A stretch of DNA of 64,000 nucleotides from an uncultured Methylomirabilota bacterium (GTDB lineage Bacteria; Methylomirabilota; Methylomirabilia; Methylomirabilales; 2-02-FULL-66-22). Below are positions 3,912-63,482 of this stretch, piece after piece. The notes under the pieces were generated by a model, which worked only from the letters and a program-made list of their open reading frames with translations, did no database searches and had not been told where the DNA came from. Each line of letters begins with the position of its first letter. Position 1 is the stretch's first letter. The stretch lies in NCBI GenBank assembly GCA_963705305.1, contig OY970067.1, forward strand, positions 5,581,312 through 5,645,311. The letters run 5' to 3'. Position numbers and translations under genes: made by a program.

Positions 3912-4122
3912 GGTGGATTGCGACGTGTCCACGGGGTTACCAGTCAATCGCATCCGTCGAGGGCGCTTCAAACGACGGGATGAGCGCCTGCCGCACCTCC
4001 GCCCGACGCTCCCGGGGCGCCGCTGGCATGCCGGCGGGACAGCTCGCGTGCGGCTCCGCAGGGCTTTCGGCTTCCGGAAAGTCAGCGCAGCAAACAACGC
4101 CCCCCGTCTTGTGGCGGGCAGA

Positions 4123-4332
4123 TTATCGCCGCCGGGAGGGCTGCCAGACGTACTCGCTCGCTTTCATGCGGAGGCTGCGCGGGGGGAGACACCCGGGGTC
4201 GCTTCGCGTCACGATCACCTGGCACCACTCCCCCTCCAGCAAGGCGTGCAGGTAGGTGTGGGTCCCATTCCGCTCGCCACGCCAGCGGGTCACCCGTCCC
4301 ACATTGTCGCGTGTGATGACGACGACGTTCAT
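4123..4332 (-). CDS. Small hypothetical protein (69 aa)
   Basis: GCAGGGGAC before ATG at 4332; protein-like composition (MNVVVITRDNVGRV...). Confidence 0.45.
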   Translation of the reverse strand: MNVVVITRDNVGRVTRWRGERNGTHTYLHALLEGEWCQVIVTRSDPGCLPPRSLRMKASEYVWQPSRRR

Positions 4333-4522
4333 GTCCCCTGCAGGTCCACGAAATAAGCCCTCGGCCATCGGAGTTCAGCCTGGGGCCTCACCTTCTTGCA
4401 CCAAGCCGAAGCCTTGGTCGAAGGATACAACAAGAAGGCCTGTGGGACGAGGCTGGAGTTCCACCTCTTCTTTTGTCGACTTGCCGAGGACGCCCTGAGC
4501 CGAACGGCGCGAGAAGAAGCGC

Positions 4523-4551
4523 TTGACTCGGTTGGATTCATGAAGGAAAAT
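4523..4551 (+). promoter_or_regulatory. Putative promoter for fluoride riboswitch 1
   Basis: TTGACT-N17-GAAAAT, 13 nt before the aptamer. Confidence 0.45.
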
Positions 4552-4564
4552 ACACCAAAGAAAT

Positions 4565-4612
4565 GGCGATGGAGTTCGCGGGTCCCCGTCTGCGCGGGGT
4601 GATAACTCCTAC
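4565..4612 (+). ncRNA. Fluoride (crcB) riboswitch 1
   Basis: GGCGATGGAGTTCGC...CCCCG/CGGGG stem...TGATAACTCCTAC; GGAGT/ACTCC pseudoknot pairing. Confidence 0.85.
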
Positions 4613-4640
4613 TGGCAAAGCCAGTGGGGGTTTTTTATTT
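4605..4640 (+). terminator. Intrinsic terminator overlapping the 3' end of riboswitch 1 (expression platform)
   Basis: AACTCCTACTGGC-AAA-GCCAGTGGGGGTT hairpin followed by TTTTATTT. Confidence 0.85.
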
Positions 4641-4800
4641 CGGGGGTTTGACGGCAATTGCCATCGCCTCCCTCCAGACCGCAGGGCGCGAGGAGGACCG
4701 GTGGGCCGTGGCCGCCGGGGGTTCCGCCCCGCCGGACTACCGACCGCCGACTCCGGCCGAGAATCCGACGCCCGTGGACGCCTGAGCCGGGAGTCGCACT

Positions 4801-5214
4801 GTGCAGCGCAAGCAGCCGACGGTCCGCGATTTGAACAGTCTCGGCGTCCATTTCTACAGCGTCGAGGCCTATGACCTGGCCATCGTTCAGCTCGAGCAGG
4901 CGACCCGCCTGGCGCCGGACGTGGCCTCCATTCACTTCAACCTGGGGGGCGCCTACTACGGGAAGGGGCGTATCGAGGACGCGGAGCGCGAGTTCCAGGA
5001 GGCGCTTGATCTCGACCCCGGCCACGCGCGCGCCCACTGGTTCCACGGCCTCTGCCTGGAGCGGATGGCCCGTCTGGGCGAAGCCCTGGCGGAATTCCAC
5101 TGGGTGCGGGAGCATTCGCCGGGGACTCGCGAGGCACGATCCGCTCTCGAGGAGATCCAGGCCATCGCCGCCCTTTCCGGACGGGAAGGCCGCGGGGCCT
5201 CCCTTACCGGATAG
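4801..5214 (+). CDS. TPR-repeat protein
   Basis: TPR signatures LNSLGVHFY, HFNLGGAYY..G..EDAEREFQEALDLDP; GTG start. Confidence 0.85.
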   Translation: MQRKQPTVRDLNSLGVHFYSVEAYDLAIVQLEQATRLAPDVASIHFNLGGAYYGKGRIEDAEREFQEALDLDPGHARAHWFHGLCLERMARLGEALAEFHWVREHSPGTREARSALEEIQAIAALSGREGRGASLTG

Positions 5215-5216
5215 CC

Positions 5217-5798
5217 ATGAAGACGGACACTCCTTCATCTCCGACGACTCTGGAACGGGCCGGGTCCGTCCATCCGGATGGATCCCGGTTGCCGGCGGGG
5301 TCTTCGAGCCCGACCCTGAATTCTGAGAGCGTTTCCGGCGCTCTCAACGCCGCCCAAGTCCGCGCGGTGGCGGCCGCGCTCCGAACGTTGGAGTACGCAC
5401 TGGATGAGGTCGAGCGCCTGCTGGCCTCGACCACTTCAGGGGTCACGATCCGCTGGCGAGTCGACCTGACCGTCGAGGAGCACCGCCTCCTCCGGCAACT
5501 CACGGCCCAACTCCGGGGGCGGCTGGCCGTCGCCTGCCTCGACCTGGGAATCGGCGCCGACGAACGGTCTGTTCGAGGCGCGATCCGGGGAACCCTGGCG
5601 GTCCTATGGGCCACACTCGAGGACAGTCGGGCAGTGAGTCTCCGCAGCTACGGTCCGCTTCCGGCCGGGGCGGGCTTGGGCCTGGATGCGACGATGGCGG
5701 CGCTCGCGGCGGACGTTGGCCGGATCCTTCGGATAGTGGAAGGAACGGAAGCAGGAGCGCGGGGCCGAGACCGGGGTGCCGCCGGCGCGGAGGCCTGA
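5217..5798 (+). CDS. Hypothetical all-helical protein with an LRSYG motif
   Basis: Starts 2 nt after the TPR gene stop; amphipathic helices. Confidence 0.7.
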   Translation: MKTDTPSSPTTLERAGSVHPDGSRLPAGSSSPTLNSESVSGALNAAQVRAVAAALRTLEYALDEVERLLASTTSGVTIRWRVDLTVEEHRLLRQLTAQLRGRLAVACLDLGIGADERSVRGAIRGTLAVLWATLEDSRAVSLRSYGPLPAGAGLGLDATMAALAADVGRILRIVEGTEAGARGRDRGAAGAEA

Positions 5799-5802
5799 GG
5801 AG

Positions 5803-6597
5803 ATGGACTTCGGAACCTTCGACGGCTTCTGGCATAGGCTCGCCCGGACGCGTCTGCACATGCCCGAGGTGTCGGACCTCGAGGCTGTCCTGGGACAGGC
5901 GATGGGCGCGTGGCGAAGCTGCGTGGTTTGCAACCTTCTCTGGGAGCGGGCCTTTGACCTGACCTCGCGCTGGCAGCAGCTCCTCGCTTCTGACGCCGCC
6001 GCCCAGGCGGACTTCCTGTGCGGGCAGACTTGGTGCAACCGGCATGCCTGGTTCTTCAGCCAGATGATGGCCCCGGTGTCCCAGGCGCGCTTGCAGCGCC
6101 GACTGCACGAGGAGGTGGCGGCCCGGATTCGGGAGCACCTCCAGTCCATCCCGGAGCGTCCGATGGGCGGGGACGCCCGCACGATTCTTGAATCGCTCAT
6201 CGGCAGGCGTACCTGTCCCCTGTGCGACGACGAGTCCGCCTTGCTGACGCTGGTCCTGGCCGCGATAGTGCGCGGCCTGACCGCGGGATCGCTCCGGCCG
6301 GCCTTCGCCGCATCCGCCGGCTGCTGTCTCCCCCATCTGGCCGCCCTGCTGTCCCGCGTCGCCCACAGCGACACCGCCCGTTTCCTGTTGGAGGCGACCC
6401 AGGATCGCCTGGCACGGCTGACGGCGGAGTTGGACTACTACCAGGCGGAGAGCGAAAGCCGGCGGCGGCGGTACGAATCGGCCGCCGACGCCCCGGCCCG
6501 GGCCCTAGCCGCCTGGGCGGGCCTGCGGGACATGGTGCGGGATTGGGAGGGGACACCGACCGAGTCCCGCCCGCAGCCGGAAGGAGTTACGCCGTGA
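5803..6597 (+). CDS. DUF6062-like protein with duplicated CxxC...CxxH modules
   Basis: GAGGAG RBS; CVVC...CNRH and CPLC...CLPH. Confidence 0.75.
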   Translation: MDFGTFDGFWHRLARTRLHMPEVSDLEAVLGQAMGAWRSCVVCNLLWERAFDLTSRWQQLLASDAAAQADFLCGQTWCNRHAWFFSQMMAPVSQARLQRRLHEEVAARIREHLQSIPERPMGGDARTILESLIGRRTCPLCDDESALLTLVLAAIVRGLTAGSLRPAFAASAGCCLPHLAALLSRVAHSDTARFLLEATQDRLARLTAELDYYQAESESRRRRYESAADAPARALAAWAGLRDMVRDWEGTPTESRPQPEGVTP

Positions 6598-6679
6598 CCG
6601 CTCCGCTCGAACCAAACAGGGGGCGGTGGGCAGCCGACGAAGCCCTCGCTTCCGCTGATGTCCCCCACGGGATGCGACG

Positions 6680-7936
6680 ATGAACGATCTCAACGGGAAG
6701 GCCGCTGTCGTCTCATCGGTTCCGGCCGATGACCGGTGGTTGAATCGCAATGTCGCGGGGATGGGGATCACCAGCCTGCTGAGCGATTGGGGACACGAGA
6801 TGGCCACGGCAATCCTCCCCGGGTTTCTGGCCGCCATCGGCGCTCCGGCCGCGGCCCTGGGCGTCATCGAAGGGGTGGCCGACGCCGTGTCCAGCTTCGT
6901 GAAACTCGGCGCCGGATGGTACACGGATCGGATCGGCCACCGGAAGGTCATCTGCGTAGGCGGTTATTTCCTGACGGGGGTCTCGCAGGCCATCTTTGCG
7001 TTTGCATACAGCTGGCCGCTGGTGCTCGCCGGCCGGACCCTCGGCTGGCTCGGTCGGGGCGTCCGCAGCCCTCTGCGGGACGCCATCCTGGCGGAGTCCG
7101 CGTCCGAGGAGGCGCGTGGGAAGGCCTTCGGCTTTCACCGGGCGGGCGACACGCTGGGCGCTGTTATTGGACCTCTCTGCGCCGTGGGGCTTCTGGCCCT
7201 GCTCCAGGGGCACGCCACCGGCGATCCCTCGTCACCCTTTCGTCTGGTATTCCTCCTGACCATCATCCCGGGTGTCGGATCGGCCCTGGCCTTCGGCACG
7301 GCGGTCCGCGAGCGGCGGCGCGCCCCGAACCGCGGGGTCCGGCTCTGGGCTACGATCCGTAGCCTGCCCCGGGCCTATCGGCGCTGGCTGGCGGGGGTGG
7401 GGATCTTCGGCATCGGGGACTTCGCGCACACCCTGATGATCCTGGCGGCCACGGAACTCCTCACCCCGGCGTACGGCGTGGTGGCGGCGGCCCAGATGGC
7501 TGCCCTGTTCTATGTGGTGCGGAATGTCCTGTACGCCGCCGCCTCTTACCCGATCGGCGCCTTGAGCGACCGCCTGGGTCGCCTCGGGATCCTGGTGCTC
7601 GGGTATGTCGTCGGCTCCCTGACGGCCGCCGGCCTCGTGGCCGCCTTCGCCTTCTCCTGGCGCCACCCCGTCTACCTTCTCGGGCTCTTCTGCCTGGGCG
7701 GAATCTACATCGCGGCCGAGGATGCCCTGGAGGGCGCCATGACCGCCGACTTCGTCCCTGCCGCGGAATGGCGGGGGATCGCGTACGGGGTGCTGGGGAC
7801 GGTCAACGGCGTCGGGGACCTGGCGGCCAGCGTGATCGTCGGCGTCCTCTGGACGGCGGTCTCGCCGGTCCTCGCATTCGCCTATGCGGCGGCGGCAATG
7901 GGCGCGGGCGCCCTGGTTGTCGCCCGCCCGTGCTGA
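6680..7936 (+). CDS. MFS transporter
   Basis: About 12 TM segments; GWYTDRIGHRK, GRGVRSPLRDA, RGKAFGFHRAGD, GALSDRLGR. Confidence 0.9.
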   Translation: MNDLNGKAAVVSSVPADDRWLNRNVAGMGITSLLSDWGHEMATAILPGFLAAIGAPAAALGVIEGVADAVSSFVKLGAGWYTDRIGHRKVICVGGYFLTGVSQAIFAFAYSWPLVLAGRTLGWLGRGVRSPLRDAILAESASEEARGKAFGFHRAGDTLGAVIGPLCAVGLLALLQGHATGDPSSPFRLVFLLTIIPGVGSALAFGTAVRERRRAPNRGVRLWATIRSLPRAYRRWLAGVGIFGIGDFAHTLMILAATELLTPAYGVVAAAQMAALFYVVRNVLYAAASYPIGALSDRLGRLGILVLGYVVGSLTAAGLVAAFAFSWRHPVYLLGLFCLGGIYIAAEDALEGAMTADFVPAAEWRGIAYGVLGTVNGVGDLAASVIVGVLWTAVSPVLAFAYAAAAMGAGALVVARPC

Positions 7937-7944
7937 GGACTGCG

Positions 7945-8958
7945 ATGCGCCTGGAAAATCTGGCGGCGGGATTGGACGATCTCTCGCGCAACCGGGAGGC
8001 GCTCGCCCTGTTGATCCTGCAGGGCGAACGGGCGGTCCCGGCCCTGGCGCGGATGCTCCTGGGGCCGCCCTCCTCTATCCCGGAGGCGCGCTGTCTCGCC
8101 GCGGAGGGCCTCGGATCGATCGGAGGGGAGGCGGCCGTCAGCGCCCTGATCCGGGTCCTCAGCCTGCACGATCCCCGACGGCTCGACCCGGTCCTCCGCC
8201 TGGCGGAGGAGGCGGTACAGAACCGGGCCGCAGAGCAGCTCGGCAGGATGGGAGACCGGCGGGCCGTCGAGCCGCTGCTGTACGGTCTGGCACAGGACGG
8301 GCTCCGCGAGGCGATGGGCGCGCTGGCCAGGCTCCGGGAGCCGCGGGCCATCCCCCACATCGTTCGGCGCCTGGAAGATCCGTGCGACCGCGCGGCAGCC
8401 GCGGACGCGCTGCTGGCATTCGGCAGCACGGCGGTTCCGGCCCTGACGGCGACACTGACCGAGCAGCACCCCTCTTCCGAGGATGAATCGCCCATGAGCG
8501 CGGAGCGACGCGCCGAGGCCGCACGCCTTCTCGGTACGCTGGGAGCTTCGCAGGCCCTGGAGGCGCTCCGGTCCCGCCTCGATGATCCGGCTGCGGCTGT
8601 CCGGCTCGAGGCCGGCCTCGCACTGGCGGCCCTCACCGGTGGCGACACACCCGATCGGGCGCTGGCGGTCATCGCACAGGGGCTGAACCATCCTGGCCCA
8701 CCGACGGCCCTGCGGTGCATGGACGCAGCTGTCGAGGCCGCCGACCGGAGTATTCCCCATCTCCTTTCTGTCGCTCCACCGAGACGGACCGCGGCAGTCG
8801 GTCCGCGCCGTCCGGGGGATGATGCGCTCCAGGTGAGCGTGATCGAGACCTTGGAGCGGATCGGCTCGGAAGCAAGCACACGGGCTATCGAGGAATTCCT
8901 TCACGACCGGAGCCCCCTCGTGCGCGAGCGAGCACAGCGGGCGCTGCGGCATCCTTGA
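7945..8958 (+). CDS. HEAT/PBS-lyase repeat protein
   Basis: Repeated AAEGLGSIG, AAEQLGRMGDRRAVEPLL, LDDPAAAVRLEA. Confidence 0.85.
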   Translation: MRLENLAAGLDDLSRNREALALLILQGERAVPALARMLLGPPSSIPEARCLAAEGLGSIGGEAAVSALIRVLSLHDPRRLDPVLRLAEEAVQNRAAEQLGRMGDRRAVEPLLYGLAQDGLREAMGALARLREPRAIPHIVRRLEDPCDRAAAADALLAFGSTAVPALTATLTEQHPSSEDESPMSAERRAEAARLLGTLGASQALEALRSRLDDPAAAVRLEAGLALAALTGGDTPDRALAVIAQGLNHPGPPTALRCMDAAVEAADRSIPHLLSVAPPRRTAAVGPRRPGDDALQVSVIETLERIGSEASTRAIEEFLHDRSPLVRERAQRALRHP

Positions 8959-8976
8959 AGGAGAGATAGGCTCCCC

Positions 8977-10512
8977 ATGGCTTTCCACAGCATACTCTTC
9001 AAACGGGCCGAGGACACGCCAACGCAGGACACAATCCAGCCGCCGGTCTTCTGCGTTGACTTGAATCTTGATCAGATCATAAACGCCGTCACCGCCGGCA
9101 GGCAGGAATACAACCTGAAGCCGTATTTCTACACTCCCTTGAGGCAGAAGGACGCGATTGCCTACCGGCATGAAGTATTCCGGGATCTCGAAGATCCACA
9201 CCTGCTCGAGAGCGTCGAGTCGTTCGCCCGGAGCATGCGGGTCATGCGCGACCATCTCGCCCAGGCGGAAAAGCTTTATTACACGTATCAGAAGGAACGC
9301 TGGTTCCTGGAGGCGGTGGAGATCTATTGTGACGCGGTGAACCGCCTGATGCAGGAGCTTGCGCTGGTCGACCTGAAATCGCGAGGTTTTCTGGGCTTCC
9401 GGGATTACCTGGCAACGTACGCCCGGTCCGAGGGTTTTACCGCCCTCCTGGCGGACACGAAACAGCTCCTGGCCGACCTGTCTTCCATCCGCTACTCTCT
9501 GATCATCAAGGGGACGTCCGTCACGGTCTGGAAATACGAATCGGAATCCGACTACAGCGTAGACGTTGAGCGGACCTTCGAAAAATTCAAGCAGGGGGCA
9601 CCCAAGGACTACCGGGCGAAATTTTCCAGCTCGCCGCAGATGAATCATGTGGAGGCGGCGATTCTGGATCTGCTCGCCAAGCTGTATCCCGACATCTTCC
9701 GACATCTTGACGTGTACTGCGCGAAGAACGCCGAGTATCTGGACGCAACGCTCGCCACCTTCGACCGTGAAGTGGAGTTCTACCTGGCCTACCTGGCGCA
9801 TCGCGGCATCTTCACCCGAGCGGGATTGCCGTTTTGCTACCCGGAAGTCTCCGACTCCTCCAAGGACGTCTATGAGCACGAGGGGTTCGATCTGGCGCTG
9901 GCCGACAAGCTCGTCAAGGAAAAGGCCTCCGTTGTCTGCAACGACTTCTACCTGAAAGACAAGGAGCGCATCCTCGTCGTCACGGGTCCGAACCAGGGCG
10001 GGAAGACCACTTTCGCCCGCGCCTTCGGCCAGCTGCATTTCCTGGCCAGCATCGGCTGCCCGGTGCCGGGCAGGGAGGCGCAGCTCTTTTTGTTCGACAG
10101 GCTCTTTACCCATTTCGAAAAAGAAGAGGACATCCGAAATCTCCGGGGCAAGATGGAAGATGACCTGATCAGGATTTCCGAGATTCTGGCCCAGGCAACC
10201 TCGAACAGCATCGTCATCCTGAACGAGAGCTTCACGGCGACGACGTTGAGCGATGCGATCTTCTTGAGCACTCGAATCCTGGAACGAATCCTCCAGCTCG
10301 ACCTGCTGTGCGTCTGCGTGACCTTCATCGATGAATTGGCGTCGTTGAGCGAGAAGACCGTCAGCGTGGTCGCGGGGGTCGCGCCCGACAATCCGGCAGT
10401 GCGGACGTACCGAATCATGCGACGGCCCGCGGACGGCGTGGCGTACGCACTGTCTATCGCCGAGAAGTACCGGCTCACGTACGAGTCCGTCAAGGAGCGC
10501 ATCCGGCCATGA
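8977..10512 (+). CDS. MutS-domain-V ATPase (MutS4-like, copy A)
   Basis: TGPNQGGKTT Walker A; DRLFTHF; ILNESF at Walker B; no N-terminal mismatch-binding domain. Confidence 0.88.
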   Translation: MAFHSILFKRAEDTPTQDTIQPPVFCVDLNLDQIINAVTAGRQEYNLKPYFYTPLRQKDAIAYRHEVFRDLEDPHLLESVESFARSMRVMRDHLAQAEKLYYTYQKERWFLEAVEIYCDAVNRLMQELALVDLKSRGFLGFRDYLATYARSEGFTALLADTKQLLADLSSIRYSLIIKGTSVTVWKYESESDYSVDVERTFEKFKQGAPKDYRAKFSSSPQMNHVEAAILDLLAKLYPDIFRHLDVYCAKNAEYLDATLATFDREVEFYLAYLAHRGIFTRAGLPFCYPEVSDSSKDVYEHEGFDLALADKLVKEKASVVCNDFYLKDKERILVVTGPNQGGKTTFARAFGQLHFLASIGCPVPGREAQLFLFDRLFTHFEKEEDIRNLRGKMEDDLIRISEILAQATSNSIVILNESFTATTLSDAIFLSTRILERILQLDLLCVCVTFIDELASLSEKTVSVVAGVAPDNPAVRTYRIMRRPADGVAYALSIAEKYRLTYESVKERIRP

Positions 10513-12011
10513 AGGCGTTTCTCATGTTTCGGGATCGCGATTTCGACCTCCAGGAGGCATTGCCTTGGAACGAGCAGGCCTTGACCCAGGATCTCGAGCT
10601 GGGGACGCTGTTCGATGCCATAGCCTGCCAGGACAAGCTGATCTGGGAGGTGGTCCGAAGGGCCATGCTACGGGGCGTGGAGGACGTGGATACCATCCTG
10701 TACCGTCAGGATATCCTCAAGGACTGCCTGAACGATCCTTCCGTGGTCCGGACGATGTATGCGATCGCCGGGGAGGCGATTGACGCCGAGCGGAAGGTGT
10801 GGTGGAGCTTTTTCCGAAATTCCCCGTCCGCGCTCCTGCACCGGTCGATCGAGGTCCTGACGCTGCTCGTCCGCGCGCTGAAGCAGCTGAGAAGTATCGC
10901 CGATGCGCACGCCCACACCTGTACTTCCGCCGGCCTGACGCGGTTGTTCAGGATGCTCGCCGCCGAGCTGGAGGACGAGTACTTCGCCCGCGTGGAGAGC
11001 CATCTGGGGGAGCTGAGCTTTCGGGACGGGGCGCTCATCAGCGCGGAATTGGGGCAGGGGAACAAAGGGACCGATTACCGGCTGCGGAAGCAGCCGGAAA
11101 AGAAGAAGCAGACCTGGATGGGGCGACTCTTCGGACCAAAACCGCTCGCCTACACCTATCACATCCCCGAGCGCGACGACAGCGGCCCGAGGTATCTCTC
11201 CGAGCTGCAGGACCGGGGCATCAACCTCGCCGCGAACGCGGTGGGCCAGTCGGCGGATCACATTCTCAGCTTCTTCGCCATGCTGCGCACCGAGCTGGCC
11301 TTCTACGTCGGCTGTGTGAACTTGCACGAGCACCTGGTCCGATTGGGCCAGCCAACCTGCTTTCCCGTGCCCGTGCCCTCCGGCAAGCGGAGCCACTCGT
11401 ACACGGAATTGTACGACGTGTGTCTCGCGCTCAGCATGGGGCGGAGCGTGGTGGGGAATGACGGGACCGCCGACGACAGAGAGCTCGTGATGATCACGGG
11501 CGCGAACCAGGGCGGAAAATCGACATTTTTGCGGAGCATCGGAATCGCCCAGCTGATGATGCAGTGCGGGCTGTTTGCGCCGGCGGATGCCTTCTGTGCG
11601 AACATCTGCACGGGCCTGTTCACGCACTACAAGCGGGAAGAGGACACGACCATGCAGAGCGGAAAATTCGATGAAGAGCTCAGCCGGATGAGCGAGATCG
11701 TAGAGCATCTGAGGCCCGACGCCATGCTGTTGTTCAACGAATCGTTCGCGGCGACAAACGAGCGGGAAGGCTCGGAGATCGCCCGGCAGATCGTGAGCGC
11801 CTTGCTGGAGCGGCGCATCAAGGTCTTCTTCGTGACCCACCTGTACGACCTTGCCCACCGGTTTTTCGCCAAGAGCATGGAGAGCGCCCTCTTTCTGCGC
11901 GCGGAGCGGCAGGCCGACGGAACGCGAACCTTCAAGTTGACCGAGGGCGAGCCGCTCGAGACCAGCCATGGCGAGGACCTGTATGTGCGCATATTCGGAG
12001 GCGCCAATTGA
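10509..12011 (+). CDS. MutS-domain-V ATPase (MutS4-like, copy B)
   Basis: TGANQGGKST; LFNESFAATNEREG; FVTH; ATGA overlap with copy A. Confidence 0.88.
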   Translation: MKAFLMFRDRDFDLQEALPWNEQALTQDLELGTLFDAIACQDKLIWEVVRRAMLRGVEDVDTILYRQDILKDCLNDPSVVRTMYAIAGEAIDAERKVWWSFFRNSPSALLHRSIEVLTLLVRALKQLRSIADAHAHTCTSAGLTRLFRMLAAELEDEYFARVESHLGELSFRDGALISAELGQGNKGTDYRLRKQPEKKKQTWMGRLFGPKPLAYTYHIPERDDSGPRYLSELQDRGINLAANAVGQSADHILSFFAMLRTELAFYVGCVNLHEHLVRLGQPTCFPVPVPSGKRSHSYTELYDVCLALSMGRSVVGNDGTADDRELVMITGANQGGKSTFLRSIGIAQLMMQCGLFAPADAFCANICTGLFTHYKREEDTTMQSGKFDEELSRMSEIVEHLRPDAMLLFNESFAATNEREGSEIARQIVSALLERRIKVFFVTHLYDLAHRFFAKSMESALFLRAERQADGTRTFKLTEGEPLETSHGEDLYVRIFGGAN

Positions 12012-12116
12012 GCTCGGAAGGGCGCGTATGCGGCCACATGGCTGCGGAATGGTCCACAGGCCGCAGAGGAGCTACGTTGTAGGTCGACGCGCCGATCGGC
12101 ACAAGGTGCGACGCGA

Positions 12117-13073
12117 ATGCCCCACATCGGGACGATCACCATGCGGAAAGGAGCCGGTAAGTGTCCGGCGCTCGGCTGGGTCGCCGTCGCAGCGGGGGGG
12201 CTGCTCTTGGCCCTCGTGGCCGCGCAGGGTTCGGGTGGGCAGGCGAGCGGCCGACCCGCAGTGCGCCTGGTGGTGTCTATCCCAACGCCACTCGAGGCGG
12301 CGATCTTCGGGCTCTTTGGCTTGGCCGCCCTCTTCGTCCTGTGGCTGCTGATGCCCCGACATCTCCGACATGGAAAGAAAGACCCGGATGCCATCGAGAT
12401 GGTCTACGAGAACCCGAAGATCTCGCCCTGGTTCACCGTCGGCATGCTGGTCCTGAGCGCCGCGCCCTTGGCGCTGGTGGGGTATCTCCTCTGGCGCGGG
12501 TGGCCGCCCTTTGAGAAGGGGGTCGCTCGCGTCTCCCTTGCGGCCGGATTTTCCGCTCCCGGGGCTCCCCTCCACCAAGGGAGCGTCGTGCCATATGCGT
12601 CGGAGCCATGGTTCAGCGGCGTGGTCACGGTTCTGGCACTGGTGGTGGGAGCGGGGTGTCTGGCGGCGACCCTCTGGATCCTCTTCGGCGATCGCCTGAT
12701 CGGGACGTGGAAAGGCCTGACGCCCCGGACCTCCGAGCCGCTGCTGGAGGCGATCGACGACAGCCTGGAGACCCTCCGACAAGAGTCGGATGCCCGCCGG
12801 GCGATCATCCGGTGCTATCGGCACTTCGAGCATGCCCTGACCCGACGGGGACTGCCGCGCGATCCCTGGGAAACCCCGACAGAGTTCATGCGGAAAGCCT
12901 TGGGCCGCCTCCCGCTCCCGCCGGAGATCGTGAAGGGTCTCATCGACCTGTTTCACCTGGCGCGCTTCAGCGATCACCCATTGGGGCCGAGGGAGCGCAA
13001 CGTCGCAGTGGACTCGCTGGTGGAAATCCGCACTGCACTGGAAGGGGAGACGGCCCATGCTTCCGCCGTCTGA
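12117..13073 (+). CDS. DUF4129-domain membrane protein
   Basis: N-terminal TM helices; C-terminal RRAIIRCY...ETPTEF...LF..ARFS. Confidence 0.8.
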   Translation: MPHIGTITMRKGAGKCPALGWVAVAAGGLLLALVAAQGSGGQASGRPAVRLVVSIPTPLEAAIFGLFGLAALFVLWLLMPRHLRHGKKDPDAIEMVYENPKISPWFTVGMLVLSAAPLALVGYLLWRGWPPFEKGVARVSLAAGFSAPGAPLHQGSVVPYASEPWFSGVVTVLALVVGAGCLAATLWILFGDRLIGTWKGLTPRTSEPLLEAIDDSLETLRQESDARRAIIRCYRHFEHALTRRGLPRDPWETPTEFMRKALGRLPLPPEIVKGLIDLFHLARFSDHPLGPRERNVAVDSLVEIRTALEGETAHASAV

Positions 13074-13539
13074 TCCGCGCTGGTGGAGATTCTTTCTGGG
13101 GTACCTCCTCTTCGCTGGGCTGCTAGCCCTGGCCCTGACGCCCCTCTATTTCTTGGCGGAGCCTACGCACCGACCGCTGGTCGTCCGCCTTGGCGCCACC
13201 CTGCTTGCCGTGAGCGTCTTGGTCCACCTCCGACGGTTCGTCCGGGCGGCGATCACGTCGCAACCCGCCTCGGCCTTCGACCGGGCGCTCCGGCCGCTGC
13301 CGCCCGAGCGCCACATCGCACCTCTCTTCCTGAAGCTCCGGAACGAGCTGCGGTTCAGCAGAGCCGATTTCGGGTACTTCCAGCGAAACCTCTGGCCTCG
13401 GATCCTCCGTTTGTCGCGGAGGCGGGTCGGGGGCTCCCTGTCAAAGGCGCCTGAGATGCCGCGGGGAGGATTCTTCCGGCGGGGGCCGTCGCTGGCTGCC
13501 TTTCGCCAGCTTATCTCGCAGATCGAGGAGCGTCCATGA
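13057..13539 (+). CDS. Hypothetical membrane protein of the MoxR module
   Basis: Two N-terminal TM helices; overlaps both neighbours. Confidence 0.7.
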   Translation: MLPPSDPRWWRFFLGYLLFAGLLALALTPLYFLAEPTHRPLVVRLGATLLAVSVLVHLRRFVRAAITSQPASAFDRALRPLPPERHIAPLFLKLRNELRFSRADFGYFQRNLWPRILRLSRRRVGGSLSKAPEMPRGGFFRRGPSLAAFRQLISQIEERP

Positions 13540-14492
13540 AGCTGGAAATGGTGGCCGATCGCTGCCGGGAGATCCTGGCAACTCTCTCCCGGGTGATCGT
13601 CGGCAAGGAGGCGGTACTCCAGCGGATCCTGGCGGGAATCCTGTGCAACGGGCACGTCCTGATCGAGGACTACCCCGGCCTGGCCAAGACCCTCATCGCG
13701 CAGCTCTTCGCCCAGACGTTGGATCTCGGCTTCAAGCGCATCCAGTTCACCCCGGACCTCTTACCGAGCGACATCACCGGCAGCTTCCTCTACGACCAGC
13801 GTCAGGGGCAATTCGAGTTCCGGCGAGGGCCTATCTTCACGAATCTGCTCCTGGCGGATGAGATTAACCGGGCCACCCCCAAGACGCAGGCCGCCATGCT
13901 GGAGGCGATGCAAGAGGCCCAGGTGACTGTGGAGGGGGAACTCTTCGCTCTGGAGCCGCCATTCCTGGTGATCGCCACCCAGAATCCGATCGAGCTGGAG
14001 GGGACCTATCCCCTCCCCGAGGCGCAGGTGGACCGGTTCCTCCTGCGACTGGCCGTGGGGTATCCGACCCCTGAGGAGGAGCGGGAGATCCTCGTGCGGC
14101 GCCGCGAGCGGCGGACGGATGCTGCGTCCGTCCCCCGTGTGATCTCCCGAGCGGAGATCCTGGCCATGCAGGCCGCGCTGGAGGAGGTCTTCGTGAGTGA
14201 GGCCATCGAGCGCTACATCGTGGACCTAGTCCAGGCCACACGGGGCGACGCCCGGGTGGCGCTCGGCGCCTCGCCGCGGGGGGCACTGGCGCTCCTCAAG
14301 CTGGCCCGGGCCGAGGCGGTTCTGGCGCGGCGGAACTTCGTGATCCCGGATGATGTGAAGGGGATGGCGGTCCCAGCTCTGGCCCACCGGCTCATCCTCA
14401 AGCCCGAGCTATGGGTGCGCAAGATCTCGGCGGAGCAAGTCCTCACCGATCTACTGGCAGAGGTACCGGCTCCTGCCACGGAGAGCCGATGA
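13536..14492 (+). CDS. moxR: MoxR-family AAA+ ATPase
   Basis: PGLAKT, RIQFTPDLLPSDITG, LADEINRATPKTQAAMLEAMQE, ATQNPIE, GASPR. Confidence 0.95.
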   Translation: MKLEMVADRCREILATLSRVIVGKEAVLQRILAGILCNGHVLIEDYPGLAKTLIAQLFAQTLDLGFKRIQFTPDLLPSDITGSFLYDQRQGQFEFRRGPIFTNLLLADEINRATPKTQAAMLEAMQEAQVTVEGELFALEPPFLVIATQNPIELEGTYPLPEAQVDRFLLRLAVGYPTPEEEREILVRRRERRTDAASVPRVISRAEILAMQAALEEVFVSEAIERYIVDLVQATRGDARVALGASPRGALALLKLARAEAVLARRNFVIPDDVKGMAVPALAHRLILKPELWVRKISAEQVLTDLLAEVPAPATESR

Positions 14493-15766
14493 TTAGGCGG
14501 ATTCCCCCCCTGGCGCTTTCCCTACTCACGCTCTGCGGGGTGACCCTGATCCTTGGCCTTCTTTCCGGCCGGTCAGAGCTGTTCCTGGTGGCCCTCCCCC
14601 TGGTGGCATCCCTCTGCCGAGCAGCCATGGCGACCGAGGTCCCTGAGTACGGCGTGACGCACGAAATCTCGCAGGAGCGGCTCTTCGAGGGCGATACGCT
14701 TCGCGTGACGGTGACCCTCACGGCCCGTTCCCAGACCCCCCTCCTGGAGCTGTGTGAGTCGATTCCCCCCGGGACCGCCCTCGCCGCGGGGAGCAACCGG
14801 GCTCTGTTCAGCCTGCGCCCCGGCCAGCAGGTCCGGTGGAGCTACGGCCTCCGGTGTCTGCGGAGGGGTCGGTTCCAGGTCGGACCCCTGTATGCGCGGG
14901 CCTGGGGATGCTCGGGGCTGGAAACGGCCGAGGGAGAACACGCGGACGCGACCCCGGTGCGAGTTTACCCGCACTCCCTTCCCCTCCGCGCCCTGCCCCA
15001 GCCTCGCCGCACGCAGACCTCGGTGGGAAACTACGTGTCGCCGGTCTTAGGGGAGGGGCTGGAGCCAGGGGAGGTCCGGCCCTTCGCCCCCGGCGACCGG
15101 GTGAAGCACGTGAACTGGCGAGCCTCACTTCGGCTCGGCCGGCTCTACGTCACCCAGTGTCACCAGGAGCGGAACGCCGATGTCGTCCTGATGCTGGATA
15201 CGCTCGGGCATGCGGGCCTTTCGCCCAGGAGCAGCCTCGACCTGTGCGCGCGGGCGGCGGCCTCGCTGGCCGGGGCCTACCTGTCGCGGAAAGACCGGGT
15301 GGGCCTCATCGAGTACGGCGGGGTGCTCCGCTGGGTGCGCCCGGGATCGGGGCGGGTCCAGCTCGAGCGGATCCTAGAGGCATTGCTGGCCGCGGAGGTG
15401 ATCTTCACTTACGTGGCCAAGGATCTCACCCTGGTGCCGCCGCGGATCCTGCCGCCCCAGGCGCTCGTCCTGGCGCTGAGTCCGCTCCTGGACGACCGGT
15501 TCGTCACGGCGGTGCGGGATCTCGCCGCCCGCGGGTTCGATGTGGTGGTGGTGTGGGTCTCGCCGGTGGCCCTGTCCCGCGAGCTGCTCTCCGGATCGCT
15601 TCTGGACGATCTGGCCTGTCGCCTGTGGACCCTGGAAAGTGAGGAGCAGCTTGCCGCGCTACGCCAAGAGGGCCTCACGATCATCGAGTGGCACCCCGAT
15701 CAGCCGCTGGAGCTGGCGCTCAGCCCCTTCGCACGCCATCGTCGGCCGAGGGCGCTGGTAGGATGA
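14489..15766 (+). CDS. DUF58 (VWA-like) protein
   Basis: VRPFAPGDRVKHVNWRAS; DRVGL; ATGA coupling to moxR. Confidence 0.88.
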   Translation: MIRRIPPLALSLLTLCGVTLILGLLSGRSELFLVALPLVASLCRAAMATEVPEYGVTHEISQERLFEGDTLRVTVTLTARSQTPLLELCESIPPGTALAAGSNRALFSLRPGQQVRWSYGLRCLRRGRFQVGPLYARAWGCSGLETAEGEHADATPVRVYPHSLPLRALPQPRRTQTSVGNYVSPVLGEGLEPGEVRPFAPGDRVKHVNWRASLRLGRLYVTQCHQERNADVVLMLDTLGHAGLSPRSSLDLCARAAASLAGAYLSRKDRVGLIEYGGVLRWVRPGSGRVQLERILEALLAAEVIFTYVAKDLTLVPPRILPPQALVLALSPLLDDRFVTAVRDLAARGFDVVVVWVSPVALSRELLSGSLLDDLACRLWTLESEEQLAALRQEGLTIIEWHPDQPLELALSPFARHRRPRALVG

Positions 15767-16299
15767 TTCGATACCTGGGCGGCATCTTGGTGATGGCCCT
15801 TCTAGGGGTCCCGCTTCTGCGGGCGCCCTCCGGGCTGGTCGGCGCCGTGGGAGCGCTGGCGGGTCTATTCTGTATCGGCGGCGTTGTGATGCTCTCGATT
15901 CCGCTCCTGACGTTCGGTGCGTCGCTGGCACTGACAGAGTACACTCTGGCCCTGTGGCTGGCCGGATCCCCGCCGGATCTCCTCGGCGCGATTGGCCTCG
16001 GTGTGACGCTCTGGCTCCTCTTCGAGGTCACCGGGTTCGCCCAGCGCATCCAGGGTGTCGCCGTGGCTCCGGGGGTGCTCCGCAGGCAGGCGCGTTCTTG
16101 GATCGGGACCGGGATTGCTTTGATTGTCCTCGGCGGCATGGTCGCAATCGCCACAAGTGCCGTGAGGCTTCGGCTTCCCCCATCGGCGTGTCCGGTCGTG
16201 GTTGCGCTCGGCGCCGTGAGCGCTTTTCTCGGTGTGGCGCGCGCCCTGCTGTGCGGCGCAACCCGGTCGGCTCCCGTCCCCTTTGACGAAGAGCGATGA
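15763..16299 (+). CDS. Hypothetical integral membrane protein
   Basis: About 6 hydrophobic segments; overlaps the DUF58 stop. Confidence 0.7.
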   Translation: MIRYLGGILVMALLGVPLLRAPSGLVGAVGALAGLFCIGGVVMLSIPLLTFGASLALTEYTLALWLAGSPPDLLGAIGLGVTLWLLFEVTGFAQRIQGVAVAPGVLRRQARSWIGTGIALIVLGGMVAIATSAVRLRLPPSACPVVVALGAVSAFLGVARALLCGATRSAPVPFDEER

Positions 16300-16310
16300 C
16301 TCGATGTGAC

Positions 16311-16600
16311 ATGATTGGATGGGGTTGCATGGGGACGGGGAAGTCGATGCCGGCGGCGTTGAAACGTGTGCAGCAGTGGGTAAATTGGATCGCGACCTTC
16401 TATCGCGCCAATGGTGCCGGCCGGCCAGCGGGCCTCCCCCTTCGGCGTGTTCACCGCGGATTACGGGCTATCTTGGTTTCTGGAGAGCGCAGCGATCGGA
16501 GTCCTCTACGACATCTCGATACCGGCCACGATTGCATTCTGTGTGACGCTCCAGTGGGCCGCCATTCCGATCTTTGCGTCGGTGCGTCGTCAGGATAACC
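16311..16600 (+). pseudogene. C-terminal remnant of an MFS transporter
   Basis: MVPAGQRASPFGVFTADYGLSWFLESAAIGVLYDISIPATIAFCVTLQWAAIPIF resembles MFS TM11-12; upstream part missing or out of frame. Confidence 0.55.
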
Positions 16601-16702
16601 GACCGAAAGCCGAGTTATGCTTCAACCTGAGAGACGACGACCGAGACGGCAGGATCGACCGGCACGGTCGCTTCACGCTTCCCAGGACTCTCCTTCGGAA
16701 GT

Positions 16703-16732
16703 TGCGTGGAATGGGTGTGCGTGGAATGGGTG
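16703..16732 (+). repeat. Perfect 15-bp tandem duplication
   Basis: TGCGTGGAATGGGTG x2, directly abutting the -35 box. Confidence 0.85.
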
Positions 16733-16761
16733 TTGACGGGCTGGCGACATAGTGCTAGATT
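16733..16761 (+). promoter_or_regulatory. Promoter for fluoride riboswitch 2
   Basis: TTGACG-N17-TAGATT with extended -10 TG; aptamer starts at 16768. Confidence 0.75.
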
Positions 16762-16767
16762 TATTTT

Positions 16768-16814
16768 GGCGACGGAGTCTGCCTAGGCGCTGATCCGGCG
16801 ATGATGACTCCTAC
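16768..16814 (+). ncRNA. Fluoride (crcB) riboswitch 2
   Basis: GGCGACGGAGTCTGCC...CGCTG/CGGCG...TGATGACTCCTAC; downstream competing hairpin ACTCCTACCGGAG/CTTCGGGAGGGGT. Confidence 0.82.
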
Positions 16815-17176
16815 CGGAGTGTAGCCAGCTTCGGGAGGGGTTCTCGGATGTTCACGACGCGACTAGCGGCGATCGACCACCCCCCAGAACCTCTGTCTTA
16901 TGTCTTATAGCCCCCCTATCACGATCCCGGGTCTAGAACTATCTTCCGACAAGTTCGGGAGAAGGAGGACCACTCCCTTCTGGCGAGGCCGCCCCAGCCG
17001 CGCTTTCCCTCGTTTGGCACCGTGAGACGGGCGCTCTTTGGACTTATGAAGGGCGGCACAGTTATCGTTGATTGCCTGGCCGAGCGTTGGCTTAAGGGGA
17101 GGGGGGGCCAGCGCTGGGGAAGCCGAGGGGGAGGCTGGATTGAGTCCGGAGATGATCGTGCTCCGCACCTTCAAAT

Positions 17177-17593
17177 GCTGAAGATCGACGCGGCCATCTT
17201 TTCGCCCGGCTGGAGGAACATCCGGGCGTCCAACTGGAGGTCCTGCGGTCGGCGTTGGTCGAGGCCTGCGCCGGATGGCGGGGCGCGCTGTTTCTTGGGC
17301 GAGGGGTGGAGGAACTCCTTCGCGGCCGGGTTGCCTCTGGGCGCGTGCACGTCATCGCCCCTTTCGAACTGCGGGTCGGACGGATCGAGCGGCAGGTGAA
17401 TGTCTCGCGGTCGCGAGCCGAGGAGCGCGTGCGCCGGAGTGACGAGGAGAACGCCTGGTTCTACCGGACATTCTTCGGAATCGATTGGGGTGACCTACGG
17501 CGGCCGGACATCGTGATCGACACGGGGACGGTCTCCGTCGCGGAGGGGACGAGCCTGCTCATGGATGGGCCCATGCTTCGCCAGCCCCGATGA
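17177..17593 (+). pseudogene. 5'-truncated cytidylate-kinase-like protein
   Basis: LFLGRG...HVIAPFELRVGRI...SDEENAWFYRTFFGIDW...DIVIDTG; in-frame TGA upstream and no N-terminal P-loop (compare intact paralog 52985-53629). Confidence 0.65.
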
Positions 17594-17691: not shown

Positions 17692-19188
17692 ATGACAGCA
17701 CAATCCCTAGAGGGCCGTCTGCGCGATCTCCTGGCCGCGAAGACACCCGTTTTGCTGGTCGTTTCAGACGATGAGGAGCGAGTTGACGAGGCGATCCGGA
17801 CAAGCCTCGCCACCTTGCCTGCGGGAATCGAGGCCTGGTCGTGGACGGTTACCGAGGGCCTGCGGACGAGTCAAACCATCATTCAGGGCACCGCGGGTGT
17901 CGCAGACGCGCTGAATGCTGCCACCCGGTTGGATCGGTCCGCCGTCTTCTTTTTCAAGGACCTTCATCTCCTGCTGGACAAGCACGACCCCTGGCTGATC
18001 CGCCGGCTAAAGGATCTGGCCGCCTCCTTCCGTGTCCAAGGAAAGGCCCTTGTTTTCCGGTCGCCGAGCATCGTCCTCCCCGACGATCTGGTCCCCACGG
18101 TGGTGGTGGTGGAGGATGCACCCCCGACGCGGACCGAGCTGATGGCTTTGCTCCGGGAATGGAAGGGATCGGCGAAGCAAGATCAGGGGCCCCCGGCCCC
18201 GGATCTTGCCGAGGGCTTCCTTCGAGCTGCCGCGGGCCTCCGACTGTACGAGGTTCGCCGCATCCTGAATCGAGCCCAGCCACAATCACCCGGCGCGGAG
18301 GATTGGCTTCTCGCCGGACTCGTGGAGGAAAAGGCCCGGTTCGTCAATCGGAGCGGCCTCCTCGAATATGTCCCCTCCGATCTCACCCTCGAGCGGGTGG
18401 GGGGGCTGCAGAACTTCAAGGGGTGGTTGCAGCAGGAGAACACGTCTTCACTGAGGCGGCTCAGCGAGTGGGGCTGAGTCCCCCCCGGGGCGTTCTCCTA
18501 ATGGGCATCACGGGCTATGGGAAGAGTGTCGCCATCAAGGCCGCGGCCAGCTTTTGGAAGCTGCCGCTTCTCAGGTTGGACATGACGCGGCTCTATGGGG
18601 GAGAATTTGGCGCGCCGGAAGAGGCTGTCCGCCAGGCCATGCAGCGCGCCGAATCCCTGGCACCGTGCGTCCTGGATGGACGAGATGGAAACAGGGATCA
18701 GCCTGGCCGGCCACAAGGCCGATGGGGGGGCCGCTTCTCGCATCCTGGGATACTTCCTCACCTGGATGCAGGAACGGCGCGCCCCGGTCTTCGTCGGCGC
18801 GACCGCCAACGCCATTGACCTTCTTCCAGCCGAGGTCTTCCGCAAGGGCCGCTTTGATGAGATCTTCTACGTCAGCCTGCCAGGTAAGGCAGAACGGCAA
18901 GAGATCTTCCAGACCCACCTGGCAAGGCGCGGAATCAATCCGGGGGGGATGGATCTGGACCTTGTCGTCTACGGGTCCAAAGGCTACAGTGGGTCTGAGA
19001 TCGAGCAGATCGTGGCCGCCGCCCTGATCGCTGCCCAGTCTGAGGGCCGCGCCCCCACCGATTCGGACTTGGCGACCTCGCTTTCGCGGACCGTCCCGAT
19101 GTCCGTCACCATGGCCGAGCAGATCAAGCGCATAGAGGCATGGGCCTTCCATCGCGCCGTGCGGGCCTCGCCCGAAGACCGGAGCTGA
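17692..19188 (+). pseudogene. Ycf46-like AAA ATPase with two frameshifts
   Basis: Three-frame mosaic: ...VGGLQNFKGWL / [15 protein letters not shown]...APCV / WMDEME...[11 protein letters not shown]; shifts near 18439 and 18672. Confidence 0.85.
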
Positions 19189-19332: not shown

Positions 19333-19764
19333 CGAACTCGACCGGGTTACGGCAGGAGGAGTCGGATAGTTGCAGCGCAATCGGGGAAAGCGCGTTTCTG
19401 TGTTTACCTCTTCCCTCCCTGCTTTCCCGTTGGAAGCGTAATCCGTCTGCCCGGCCGCATGGGTTGTCCTGCGCATGATCCGAAGGAGGATCGGCGAACC
19501 CCTGTGCGCTGGCAGTCTTGCCGGAGCTGATCACGGACCGGGCGATGATTGCGAAATGGCTCGGGGCTGTCGAAGCGCTTCTGTCCGACTGCAATGAGGT
19601 GCTCGCGCCCACCGGGGGGAGGCACATCCTTTTTCGTAGCCAGCCGAGGCGCGGCCTTTCAGATTCCACCCGAGCCATGATTCCTCTGCCAATGATGCCG
19701 GCAAACTGGCGGCCGCCGGATGGCGCCGCTCGCTCACTCGGGGCTGTATAGAAAGGAGACGCAG

Positions 19765-21033
19765 ATGGGAGACAAGATCAAATCTGTCCGCGCACTGGAG
19801 ATTCTCGATTCGCGCGGGAACCCCACGCTTCGCGTGCAGGTGGGGCTGGAGAGCGGCATCCTCGCCTCGGCCTCGGTGCCCTCCGGCGCCTCGACCGGAG
19901 AGAACGAGGCACTGGAGCTCCGCGACGGCGACAAGAAGCGCTACGGCGGGAAGGGCGTCCTCAAGGCGGTCTCGCACGTCACCGAAAGGATTGCCCCGGC
20001 GCTGCGTGGCATGGATCCCACCCGCCAGGCGGAGATCGATGCCCGGATGATCGAGTTGGACGGGACCCCCAACAAGGGCGCACTGGGGGCCAATGCCATC
20101 CTGGGGGTCTCGATGGCCGTGGCCCGCGCGGCCGCCCTGAGCGCCGGCCTGCCGCTCTACGCCTACCTGGGAGGGCCCGGCGCCGTCCGGCTTCCGGCCC
20201 CGATGATGAACATCCTCAACGGGGGAAAGCACGCGGACAACAGCGTGGACTTCCAGGAGTTCATGGCGATGCCCGTCGGCGCGCCGACCTTCGCCGAGGC
20301 CCTGCGGTACGGCGCGGAGACCTTCCACGCGCTCAAGGCCATCCTGCATCGGAAGGGGTACGCTACCAGCGTCGGGGACGAAGGGGGGTTCGCCCCCAAC
20401 CTCAAGAGCAACGAGGAGGCCTGTGAGGTCATCCTGGAGGCCATCCAGGCGGCAGGCTACACGCCTGGGAAGGACGTTGCCATCGCCCTGGATCCGGCGG
20501 CCAGCTCCTTCTTTGAGGGAGGCGCCTACAACCTGGTCAAGTCGGGCCAGGGAAAGAAGACCAGCACGGAGATGACGGCGCTGTATCGCTCGTGGCTGGA
20601 CAAGTACCCCATCGTCTCCATCGAGGATGGCCTGGCGGAAACCGACTGGCACGGATTCCGCGAGCACACTGCCGCGCTGGGTGGCCGCGTCCAGATCGTG
20701 GGCGATGACATCTACGTCACCAACACCCGGTTCATCGCGCGGGGCATCCAGGAGCGCACGACGAACGCCGTGCTCATCAAGCTGAACCAGATCGGGACGG
20801 TCACCGAGACGATTCGGGCGATCGAGATGTGCCGGAAGGCCGGGTGGGGCTACGTGGTCTCCCACCGGTCCGGCGAGACCGAGGATGCCTTCCTGGCGGA
20901 TTTCGCCGTGGCCATGGGCGGGGGCCAGATCAAGACCGGCTCGGCCTGCCGGAGCGAGCGGATCGCCAAGTACAACCGCCTCCTGGAGATCGAGGCGGAG
21001 CTGGGAAAGACTGCGGTGTATGGAAAGGCATGA
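19765..21033 (+). CDS. eno: Enolase (phosphopyruvate hydratase)
   Basis: [52 protein letters not shown]. Confidence 0.97.
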
Positions 21034-33081: not shown

Positions 33082-33287
33082 CATCCTGCGAGGCGACGCC
33101 GCGGCAACCTATCCGCGAGGGACGCGCCCCTGTGCCCGCCGGGGCGCGGGGGATTAATTCACCTCAATCCGAGATTCTTCAACCGCCAGGGCGTCATGGG
33201 AAAAATTCAAATTCCGAAGTTCGAATTTCGAAATTGAAAGGCGTGATCCTGGCGTCATGGCGGTCAACGTCTTTCCCGGATCAGGGC

Positions 33288-63405: not shown

Positions 63406-63482
63406 GGGGTCGTAGTTCAGTTGGCTAGAACGCCGGCCTGTCACGCCGGAGGTCGCGGGTTCGAGTCCCGTCGGCCCCGCCA
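63406..63482 (+). tRNA. tRNA-Asp (GTC)
   Basis: Cloverleaf with CCGGC-CTGTCAC-GCCGG anticodon arm, GGTTCGAGTCC T-arm and encoded CCA. Confidence 0.97.

Follow-up and report, generated by a model that had tools for sequence, protein, structure and literature searches.

Fluoride riboswitches of the RF01734/crcB-motif class, of which the Bacillus cereus crcB leader is an example, carry a P1 loop, a pseudoknot and a conserved 3' strand. An intrinsic terminator that overlaps the 3' part of the aptamer is a known design of the class, the ligand favouring read-through (Weinberg 2010, PMC2864571; PMC8004769). The 2010 article also reports mutS genes behind the crcB motif, and the gene classes of the fluoride regulon include enolase, formate hydrogen lyase, the Na/H exchanger and Usp, according to PMC11139923. 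We analysed a stretch of 64,000 nucleotides (nt), called the window below, from an uncultured Methylomirabilota bacterium (contig OY970067.1, positions 5,581,312 to 5,645,311 of the forward strand), in which an element at positions 4523-4640 is rather likely to be a variant fluoride ON switch gating a string of twelve genes at 4801-16299. Earlier publications cover the switch class, its overlapping terminator and the mutS context. What is new is a short-linker variant of the switch that is found throughout a genus and missed by the Rfam cut-off, the assembly of four gene modules behind one such variant switch, and the counts that tie a cassette of two MutS domain-V (MutS-V) ATPases and the DUF6062-type proteins to fluoride switches.

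The fluoride-riboswitch-like aptamer lies at 4565-4612 on the + strand, as indicated by its RF01734 match and by an alignment of 15 copies of the same short-linker form. As read from the sequence, its first hairpin, P1, is made of a 5' strand (4565-4568), a loop (4569-4576) with the sequence AUGGAGUU, and a 3' strand (4577-4580). P1 contains three standard pairs and an outermost G-G, and the three inner pairs are invariant in 15/15 copies; in addition, 4565-4580 agree with the RF01734 consensus GAUGGnGUU at each conserved loop position. A second hairpin of six pairs (4584-4599, + strand) is followed by the aptamer 3' strand UGAUAACUCCUAC (4600-4612, + strand), within which ACTCCTAC is located at 4605-4612. 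The pseudoknot joins 4571-4576 with 4604-4609 through six pairs, and in the 15 copies 100% of its cells are paired, with two pairs varying on one side only. When compared with the consensus UGAUGACUCCUAC, the 3' strand agrees at 12 of 13 positions, the sole difference being a G-to-A change that turns a G-U pair with a loop U into an A-U pair, so that pairing is retained. The same change is present in canonical 51-52-bit copies of relatives (L021, L022).

The RF01734 (Fluoride) model of Rfam matched positions 4556-4618 with 26.1 bits, against a gathering score of 34, and with E-values of 2.1e-5 (301 nt), 0.0045 (whole window) and 9.5e-5 (whole genome). No other Rfam family had a significant E-value at the aptamer, which is, to judge by its sequence, a real but sub-threshold match. 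The low score is explained mainly by the linker between the two hairpins, which the RF01734 model aligns with a 4-nt deletion and which has lost the consensus adenines, by the outermost G-G in P1 and by the G-to-A change in the 3' strand. The pocket and tertiary-pair positions named in PMC8004769 (A5-U35, A37-U45, U38, and G39 with U12) all have counterparts in 4565-4612 in our own mapping onto the sequence. Since the aptamer scores below the cut-off and departs from the consensus linker, we infer fluoride binding from this likeness. The window's variant thus shares the P1 loop, the pseudoknot, the 3' strand and the overlapping terminator with the described riboswitches, and differs from them by its score, by a linker scored 4 nt shorter without the consensus adenines, by a P1 with three standard pairs, and by a downstream string in which no fluoride exporter is found.

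The aptamer is framed by transcription signals on the + strand. A promoter-like site (TTGACT, 17-nt spacer, GAAAAT; 4523-4551), with 9 of 12 matches in a consensus scan, places the transcript start about 5-8 nt upstream of P1. On the other side, an intrinsic terminator (4604-4640) consists of a 13-pair stem (4604-4632) with seven G-C pairs and a loop of three (AAA), followed by the T-run TTTTATTTCG. Its 5' arm includes all six bases of the pseudoknot 3' strand (4604-4609). The terminator hairpin alone folds with -20.4 kcal/mol, and a 96-nt stretch with -41.2 kcal/mol (z = -3.36 against shuffles). This stem is the strongest by far among nine terminator-like sites in 4000-17500, a count that is uninformative by itself because shuffles average 7.2. 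A preliminary description of this DNA, made from the letters alone, had stated that the pseudoknot strand doubles as the 5' arm of a 13-bp hairpin followed by a T-run, and the sequence bears this out in detail. It had also proposed a transcriptional ON switch; here the architecture speaks in favour, as the six pseudoknot bases are shared with the terminator in 15/15 copies, while the sub-threshold aptamer and its non-consensus linker speak against. The terminator is followed by a G+C-rich leader of 160 nt (4641-4800, + strand), which contains no recognised element and folds no better than shuffles. A metallophosphoesterase gene precedes the TPR gene in relatives (see below), and the leader was considered as a remnant of such a gene; this was rejected, no similarity being found.

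To place the variant among its relatives, 41 genomes were compared, namely the window's own and 40 relatives. RF01734 matches at E <= 0.01 were present in 22 of them. Among the 21 genomes of the genus, 14 carry the short-linker form, as inspection of the match sequences showed, with 15 copies in total scoring 22-34 bits with Rfam. The overlapping terminator is retained in all 15 copies, and a TTGAC -35 box stands at an equal upstream distance in 14 of them. In the 15-copy alignment, standard pairs fill 91.8% of the aptamer and pseudoknot cells and 98.5% of the terminator cells. This conservation supports the element. A model built from the 15 copies (R1) gave 89-105 bits in this genus only, and its other matches in 150 genomes of the phylum reached at most 67 bits. 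The latter are ordinary fluoride riboswitches, most of which also fit the terminator part of the model; therefore the terminator design is general in the phylum and the short linker peculiar to the genus. In one genome of the genus, a canonical 54-bit riboswitch (L034, G010:C7:2236-2297) is immediately followed by an open reading frame (ORF) that starts like a small membrane protein, possibly CrcB.

We propose that 4523-4640 would comprise a promoter and a lineage-specific short-linker fluoride riboswitch that works as a transcriptional ON switch. In the absence of fluoride, 4604-4616 would pair with 4620-4632 and the polymerase would terminate at the T-run. Once fluoride is bound, presumably in a Mg-F cluster like that of the canonical class, 4604-4609 would be held in the pseudoknot with 4571-4576, the terminator could not nucleate, and the polymerase would read through into 4801-16299. 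The element is very probably a working fluoride-responsive switch, and we are nearly as confident that it controls at least the first three genes of the string.

Twelve ORFs on the + strand follow the leader. With the likeliest starts, their junctions measure 2, 4, 82, 8, 18, -4, 105, -17, -4, -4 and -4 nt, in agreement with the preliminary description, which had given 105 nt as the upper limit of the gaps and had noted several overlaps of 4 nt. Its family labels likewise agree with our family scan, which gives TPR, MFS, HEAT, two MutS_V, DUF4129, MoxR AAA_3 and DUF58. The first gene, g01 (4801-5214), encodes a TPR protein of 137 amino acids (aa; TPR_16, 55.8 bits), with orthologues 62-73% identical in genomes G020, G019, G009 and G006. 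It is followed by g02 (5217-5798; 193 aa, no family), with orthologues 33-42% identical in G020, G019 and G009, for which an Atlas search returned unnamed clusters only, with scores <= 0.90. Then come g03 (5803-6597, the longest ORF beginning at 5776; 264 aa), which encodes a divergent DUF6062-type protein, g04 (6680-7936; 418 aa), an MFS transporter (MFS_1, 98.7 bits), and g05, a HEAT/PBS-lyase repeat protein (7945-8958, with a start at 7945 or 7930 and a longest ORF from 7768). Two paralogous MutS domain-V ATPases are encoded by g06 (8977-10512; 511 aa; MutS_V, 72.2 bits) and g07 (10509-12011; 500 aa; MutS_V, 74.1 bits), which overlap by 4 nt. The distal part of the string contains g08 (12117-13073; 318 aa; DUF4129, 57 bits), g09 (13057-13539; 160 aa, no family; orthologues in G006, G009 and G013), g10 (13536-14492; 318 aa), g11, a DUF58 protein (14489-15766), and g12 (15763-16299), which has no family and has orthologues in G006 (67%), G013 and G009. 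The likely starts of the last two, each giving a 4-nt overlap with the preceding gene, are 14489 for g11 (longest ORF from 14411) and 15763 for g12 (longest ORF from 15688). The product of g10 is a MoxR-type AAA+ ATPase, since AAA_3 (PF07726, 214 bits) and AAA_lid_2 (71.9 bits) both score above their cut-offs and DUF58 (60 bits) is encoded by the adjoining gene. By its gene content, the string is a mosaic, composed of TPR-g02-DUF6062-like, MFS-HEAT, the MutS-V pair, and DUF4129-g09-MoxR-DUF58-g12 as its four modules.

We then looked at the signals within the string and at its borders. A sigma-70 consensus scan found no promoter-like site on the + strand between 4551 and 16359, and a consensus scan for terminators found none but weak sites inside the string. 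Neither the 82-nt nor the 105-nt gap contains a T-run or folds better than its shuffles. The unit has a single candidate end, a weak terminator-like site of seven pairs followed by TTTTCT (16204-16233, + strand), inside the 3' end of g12. A spacer of about 430 nt follows g12 (16296-16752). Its G+C content is lower than that of the operon (0.60 vs 0.667), and its two small ORFs have no family, one of them showing a chance-level likeness to an MFS C-terminus (E = 0.2). The spacer may be a gene remnant at the joint of two units, and its ORFs were not counted in the operon. The string is bounded by the next unit, which begins on the + strand with a promoter-like site (TTGACG, 17 nt, TAGATT, TG) and a second sub-threshold aptamer (16733-16820). 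Judging by the gene spacing, all twelve genes are probably read from a single promoter. The chances that all of them depend on the switch as one unit appear about even.

The modules were also found behind fluoride switches in relatives. The TPR-g02-g03 block stands in riboswitch-headed co-directional strings in 4/4 relatives with a close g03 orthologue (G020, G019, G009 and G006), where the TPR gene is not the first one and directly follows a metallophosphoesterase gene. Besides canonical DUF6062 genes, those strings hold genes for a dynamin-family GTPase, a Na/H exchanger, Usp and enolase. The last three, gene classes of the regulon, are found in variant-headed strings of relatives. The DUF4129-g09-MoxR-DUF58-g12 module ends variant-switch-headed strings in G006, G009 and G013. 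Like other modules of its kind, it combines AAA_3, DUF58 and DUF4129 proteins with small membrane partners. MoxR/DUF58/DUF4129 modules are thought to be chaperone-like remodelling systems, and none of the papers listed by our literature search joins a fluoride riboswitch with MoxR or DUF58. The closest counterpart of the whole locus is a 29-kb fluoride island in G009 (contig C300), which is headed by the same variant switch and terminator and shares with the window the MutS-V pair and, in unchanged order, orthologues of g01-g05 and g08-g12. Between these genes the island has additional ones (phosphoesterase, a long DUF6062 protein, NUDIX, enolase, deformylase and CBS-Usp), and it also differs from the window by the position of its MutS-V pair, which lies behind a second, canonical riboswitch (40.6 bits) and a Na/H exchanger gene.

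The MutS-V pair was then followed beyond the phylum. The search with g06 matched more than 800 stretches, of which the best 80 were kept for all locus counts. The g06 relatives are 52-68% identical and come from Bacillota, Chloroflexota, Desulfobacterota, Acidobacteriota, Actinomycetota, Verrucomicrobiota, Alphaproteobacteria and one archaeal bin. A distinct g07 orthologue follows the g06 orthologue in 80/80 loci, with a median offset of 6 nt; therefore the pair is a fixed cassette. Fluoride-type elements were sought around it with a model of our own (R2, threshold E <= 1e-3), which in the window recovers exactly the four known sites and nothing else. Matches were present in 44/80 loci, upstream on the same strand in 43/80 and within 400 nt in 29/80, and six more loci gave weaker full-length matches at the same place. 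With Rfam at its own cut-off, 11 loci picked from the 80 gave 36 matches, and in 10 of these 11 an Rfam-level match lies at most 400 nt upstream of the pair, one of them being scored weakly by R2. Fluoride islands are common around the cassette; in L109, L066, L064, L072 and L112, MutS-V loci of other phyla, four to five above-cut-off riboswitches lie within about 13 kb, on both strands. Genes of other modules of the string are also found at these loci, with g04-like MFS genes in 16/80 loci, HEAT in 4 and MoxR with DUF58 in 3.

Both g06 and g07 belong to the MutS domain V ATPase superfamily, their MutS_V (PF00488) scores being well above the cut-off of 30.2. An assignment to MutS1 or MutS2, and with it to mismatch repair or to an Smr endonuclease, was rejected, as the full-length models (TIGR01070, NF003810 and TIGR01069) gave 60-86 bits against cut-offs of 400-642 and the domain-V ATPase part alone matches. 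In g06, residues 285-506 alone resemble solved MutS proteins, and the N-terminal 285 residues have no family. The g07 protein weakly resembles the KamC reactivase ATPase (73 bits vs a cut-off of 300). The preliminary description had expected that the locus would give most of these proteins a first functional clue. For the MutS-like genes it is not the first, since the mutS-crcB link was known in 2010 (PMC2864571). In line with that article, g06 and g07 carry MutS domain V and their close relatives in many phyla lie directly behind Rfam-level fluoride riboswitches; the window's pair differs in that it has no switch of its own and stands mid-string, 18 nt after the HEAT gene. The 2010 'mutS' genes may belong to the same subfamily as g06 and g07.

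The g03 product is, by its sequence relationships, a divergent DUF6062 relative. Its score for DUF6062 (PF19538) is 23 bits, under the Pfam cut-off of 27, and its phmmer relatives include proteins scoring 65-119 bits for this family. The representative library contains 462 relatives of g03, and of 12 that were scanned, seven are fused to a dynamin-family GTPase. Two CxxC...CxxH sets are present, with C40, C43, C78, H81, C138, C141, C175 and H178 conserved. The predicted structure is all-helical (pLDDT 89.8); it had no PDB match at E <= 0.001 with Foldseek, a wide VIA-align comparison gave a best Z of 6.0 over 70 helical residues, which is the noise level for helical proteins, and a profile search of PDB sequences gave nothing under E = 0.3. 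To see whether the family as a whole is linked to fluoride switches, we compared by hand the positions of DUF6062 genes and riboswitches in 151 genomes of the phylum. The family occurs in 33 of them, and in 19 of these 33 a copy lies at most 5 kb downstream of a riboswitch match on the same strand. Counted by match rows, 24/41 stand within 5 kb behind a switch and two more at 5.4-5.5 kb. Our literature search found no mention of DUF6062.

Several observations weigh against a fluoride switch that gates the whole string. Some concern the sensor itself: the Rfam score lies under the curated cut-off, and the inter-hairpin linker reads GGGUCC in all 15 copies, the adenines of the consensus ..AACC being missing. 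Covariation gives no support, because the 15 copies are close kin and no measure rises above shuffles; the terminator has no compensatory changes, and the one aptamer pair that changes on both sides does not exceed shuffles. Others concern the genomic associations, as 36/80 MutS-V loci and 14/33 DUF6062 genomes have no linked switch at the thresholds used. The only canonical DUF6062 gene of this genome (75 bits) has no riboswitch; it is located about 5 kb ahead of the window (G000:C1:5575600-5576253; locus L122, 6511-7365, - strand) and is flanked by a set of branched-chain amino-acid ABC transporter genes on one side and by a gene for a family-B DNA polymerase on the other. The low score and the replaced adenines would be expected if the short-linker variant were not a fluoride sensor at all and had changed its ligand, as variant subtypes of other riboswitch classes have done, or become a decaying relic, the terminator being then constitutive or otherwise controlled. 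We consider this very improbable. The pocket and tertiary positions named in PMC8004769 are all retained, and the conservation of variant, promoter and terminator together in 14 genomes argues against decay. Moreover, in G020 the variant is the only fluoride-type match found and heads a string ending in enolase, and the variant-bearing strings of G019 and G009 carry a Na/H exchanger and Usp, typical regulon members.

The extent of the unit is the other point at issue. The switch could gate the proximal module only (g01-g03, perhaps to g07), while the MFS-HEAT-MutS genes and the MoxR module would be transcribed, without any dependence on fluoride, from internal promoters located at 6598-6679 (the 82-nt gap), at 12012-12116 (the 105-nt gap) or in both places. 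These two gaps, the largest of the string, coincide with borders of modules that are arranged differently in relatives, and the MutS-V pair of G009 has its own riboswitch. In addition, the promoter scan covers sigma-70-like sites only, and this consensus is crude and may not be the host's promoter type. The string itself appears to be a recent assembly and not a conserved operon, because the gene order from switch to MoxR differs in every genome, and the MutS-V pair is present in just 1/40 relatives (G009). When the gap before g08 was aligned with three relatives, no shared conserved element was seen, which neither supports nor excludes a promoter. Internal promoters are nevertheless unlikely, as neither gap shows a promoter-like or terminator-like site or any unusual structure. 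The DUF4129 gene of G009 overlaps the enolase ORF in front of it, therefore the MoxR module has no promoter of its own there, and in G006, G009 and G013 the stretch from the head switch to the MoxR module contains no other riboswitch. We do not rate such promoters lower still because the largest gaps coincide with the module borders. A further argument for a variant fluoride switch in front of the whole string is that each of its four modules is linked to fluoride switches elsewhere. From the gene spacing we infer read-through as far as g12.

The window holds further fluoride-type elements. The genome is a single contig of 5.65 Mb, and its four RF01734-type matches at E <= 1 all lie on the + strand of the window, within 25 kb, at 4556 (26.1 bits), 16759 (24.0 bits), 19276 (38.6 bits) and 29395 (57.4 bits). 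Behind the second aptamer (16759-16820), the ORFs appear split, namely cytidylate-kinase-like ones at 17022-17399 and 17255-17593 and AAA ATPase ones at 17841-18818 and 18595-19188; frameshifts or gene decay may be the cause. The 38.6-bit riboswitch precedes an enolase gene (19720-21033) and a complex-I/hydrogenase-4-like set, in a region that extends to 29288. The set contains NADHdh, Proton_antipo_M, a 49-kDa/30-kDa fusion and a 20-kDa subunit and is, by its family content, a formate-hydrogenlyase-like unit. The 57.4-bit riboswitch precedes a dynamin-family GTPase (29526-31220) and a Na/Pi cotransporter with a PhoU domain (31468-33081), after which a 427-aa protein without family is encoded at 33132-34415. 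No family match to CrcB was found in the genome. Four CLC genes lie elsewhere in the genome, and NCBIfam does not separate fluoride-type CLCs; a 469-aa CLC without CBS domains (G000:C1, about 5424304-5425323) could be a candidate of the fluoride type. Elsewhere in the window, a mir-486 match at 1416-1479 (29.8 bits vs a cut-off of 69) was discarded as chance, and a tRNA (70.9 bits) is present at 63406-63479.

The string encodes two ATPase machines as well as helical proteins of the zinc type, repeat scaffolds and a transporter, and the genome yielded no match to CrcB. This combination suggests tolerance beyond the known export systems. The proteins of the string most likely belong to an export-independent part of the fluoride stress response, with ATP-driven remodelling machines, zinc-type helpers and a transporter. 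One may go further and read the fluoride island as a tolerance system independent of known exporters, a speculative idea to which we give a small chance. A MutS-V heterodimer and the MoxR-DUF58-DUF4129 machine would then be ATP-driven 'reactivases' that would free poisoned enzymes, enolase for instance, of Mg-fluoride-phosphate complexes or else rebuild such enzymes. Repair of membranes or proteins would be the task of the DUF6062-type zinc proteins, which are often fused to dynamin-like GTPases, and the g04 MFS carrier would offer a new route for the export of fluoride or of a complex containing it.

Few genomic signposts of function are as clear as fluoride riboswitches, and a large part of their regulon is still unexplained, including the MutS-like ATPase pair known behind the switch since 2010. 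A conserved genus-wide variant that is missed by the Rfam cut-off means that regulon surveys made at that cut-off undercount. The locus described here puts twelve mostly uncharacterised genes behind one switch, and links to fluoride switches recur independently for the MutS-V cassette in many phyla, for the DUF6062-type proteins, and for the MoxR module within the genus. Altogether, these comparisons turn genes annotated as 'hypothetical protein' into testable candidates for export-independent fluoride tolerance.

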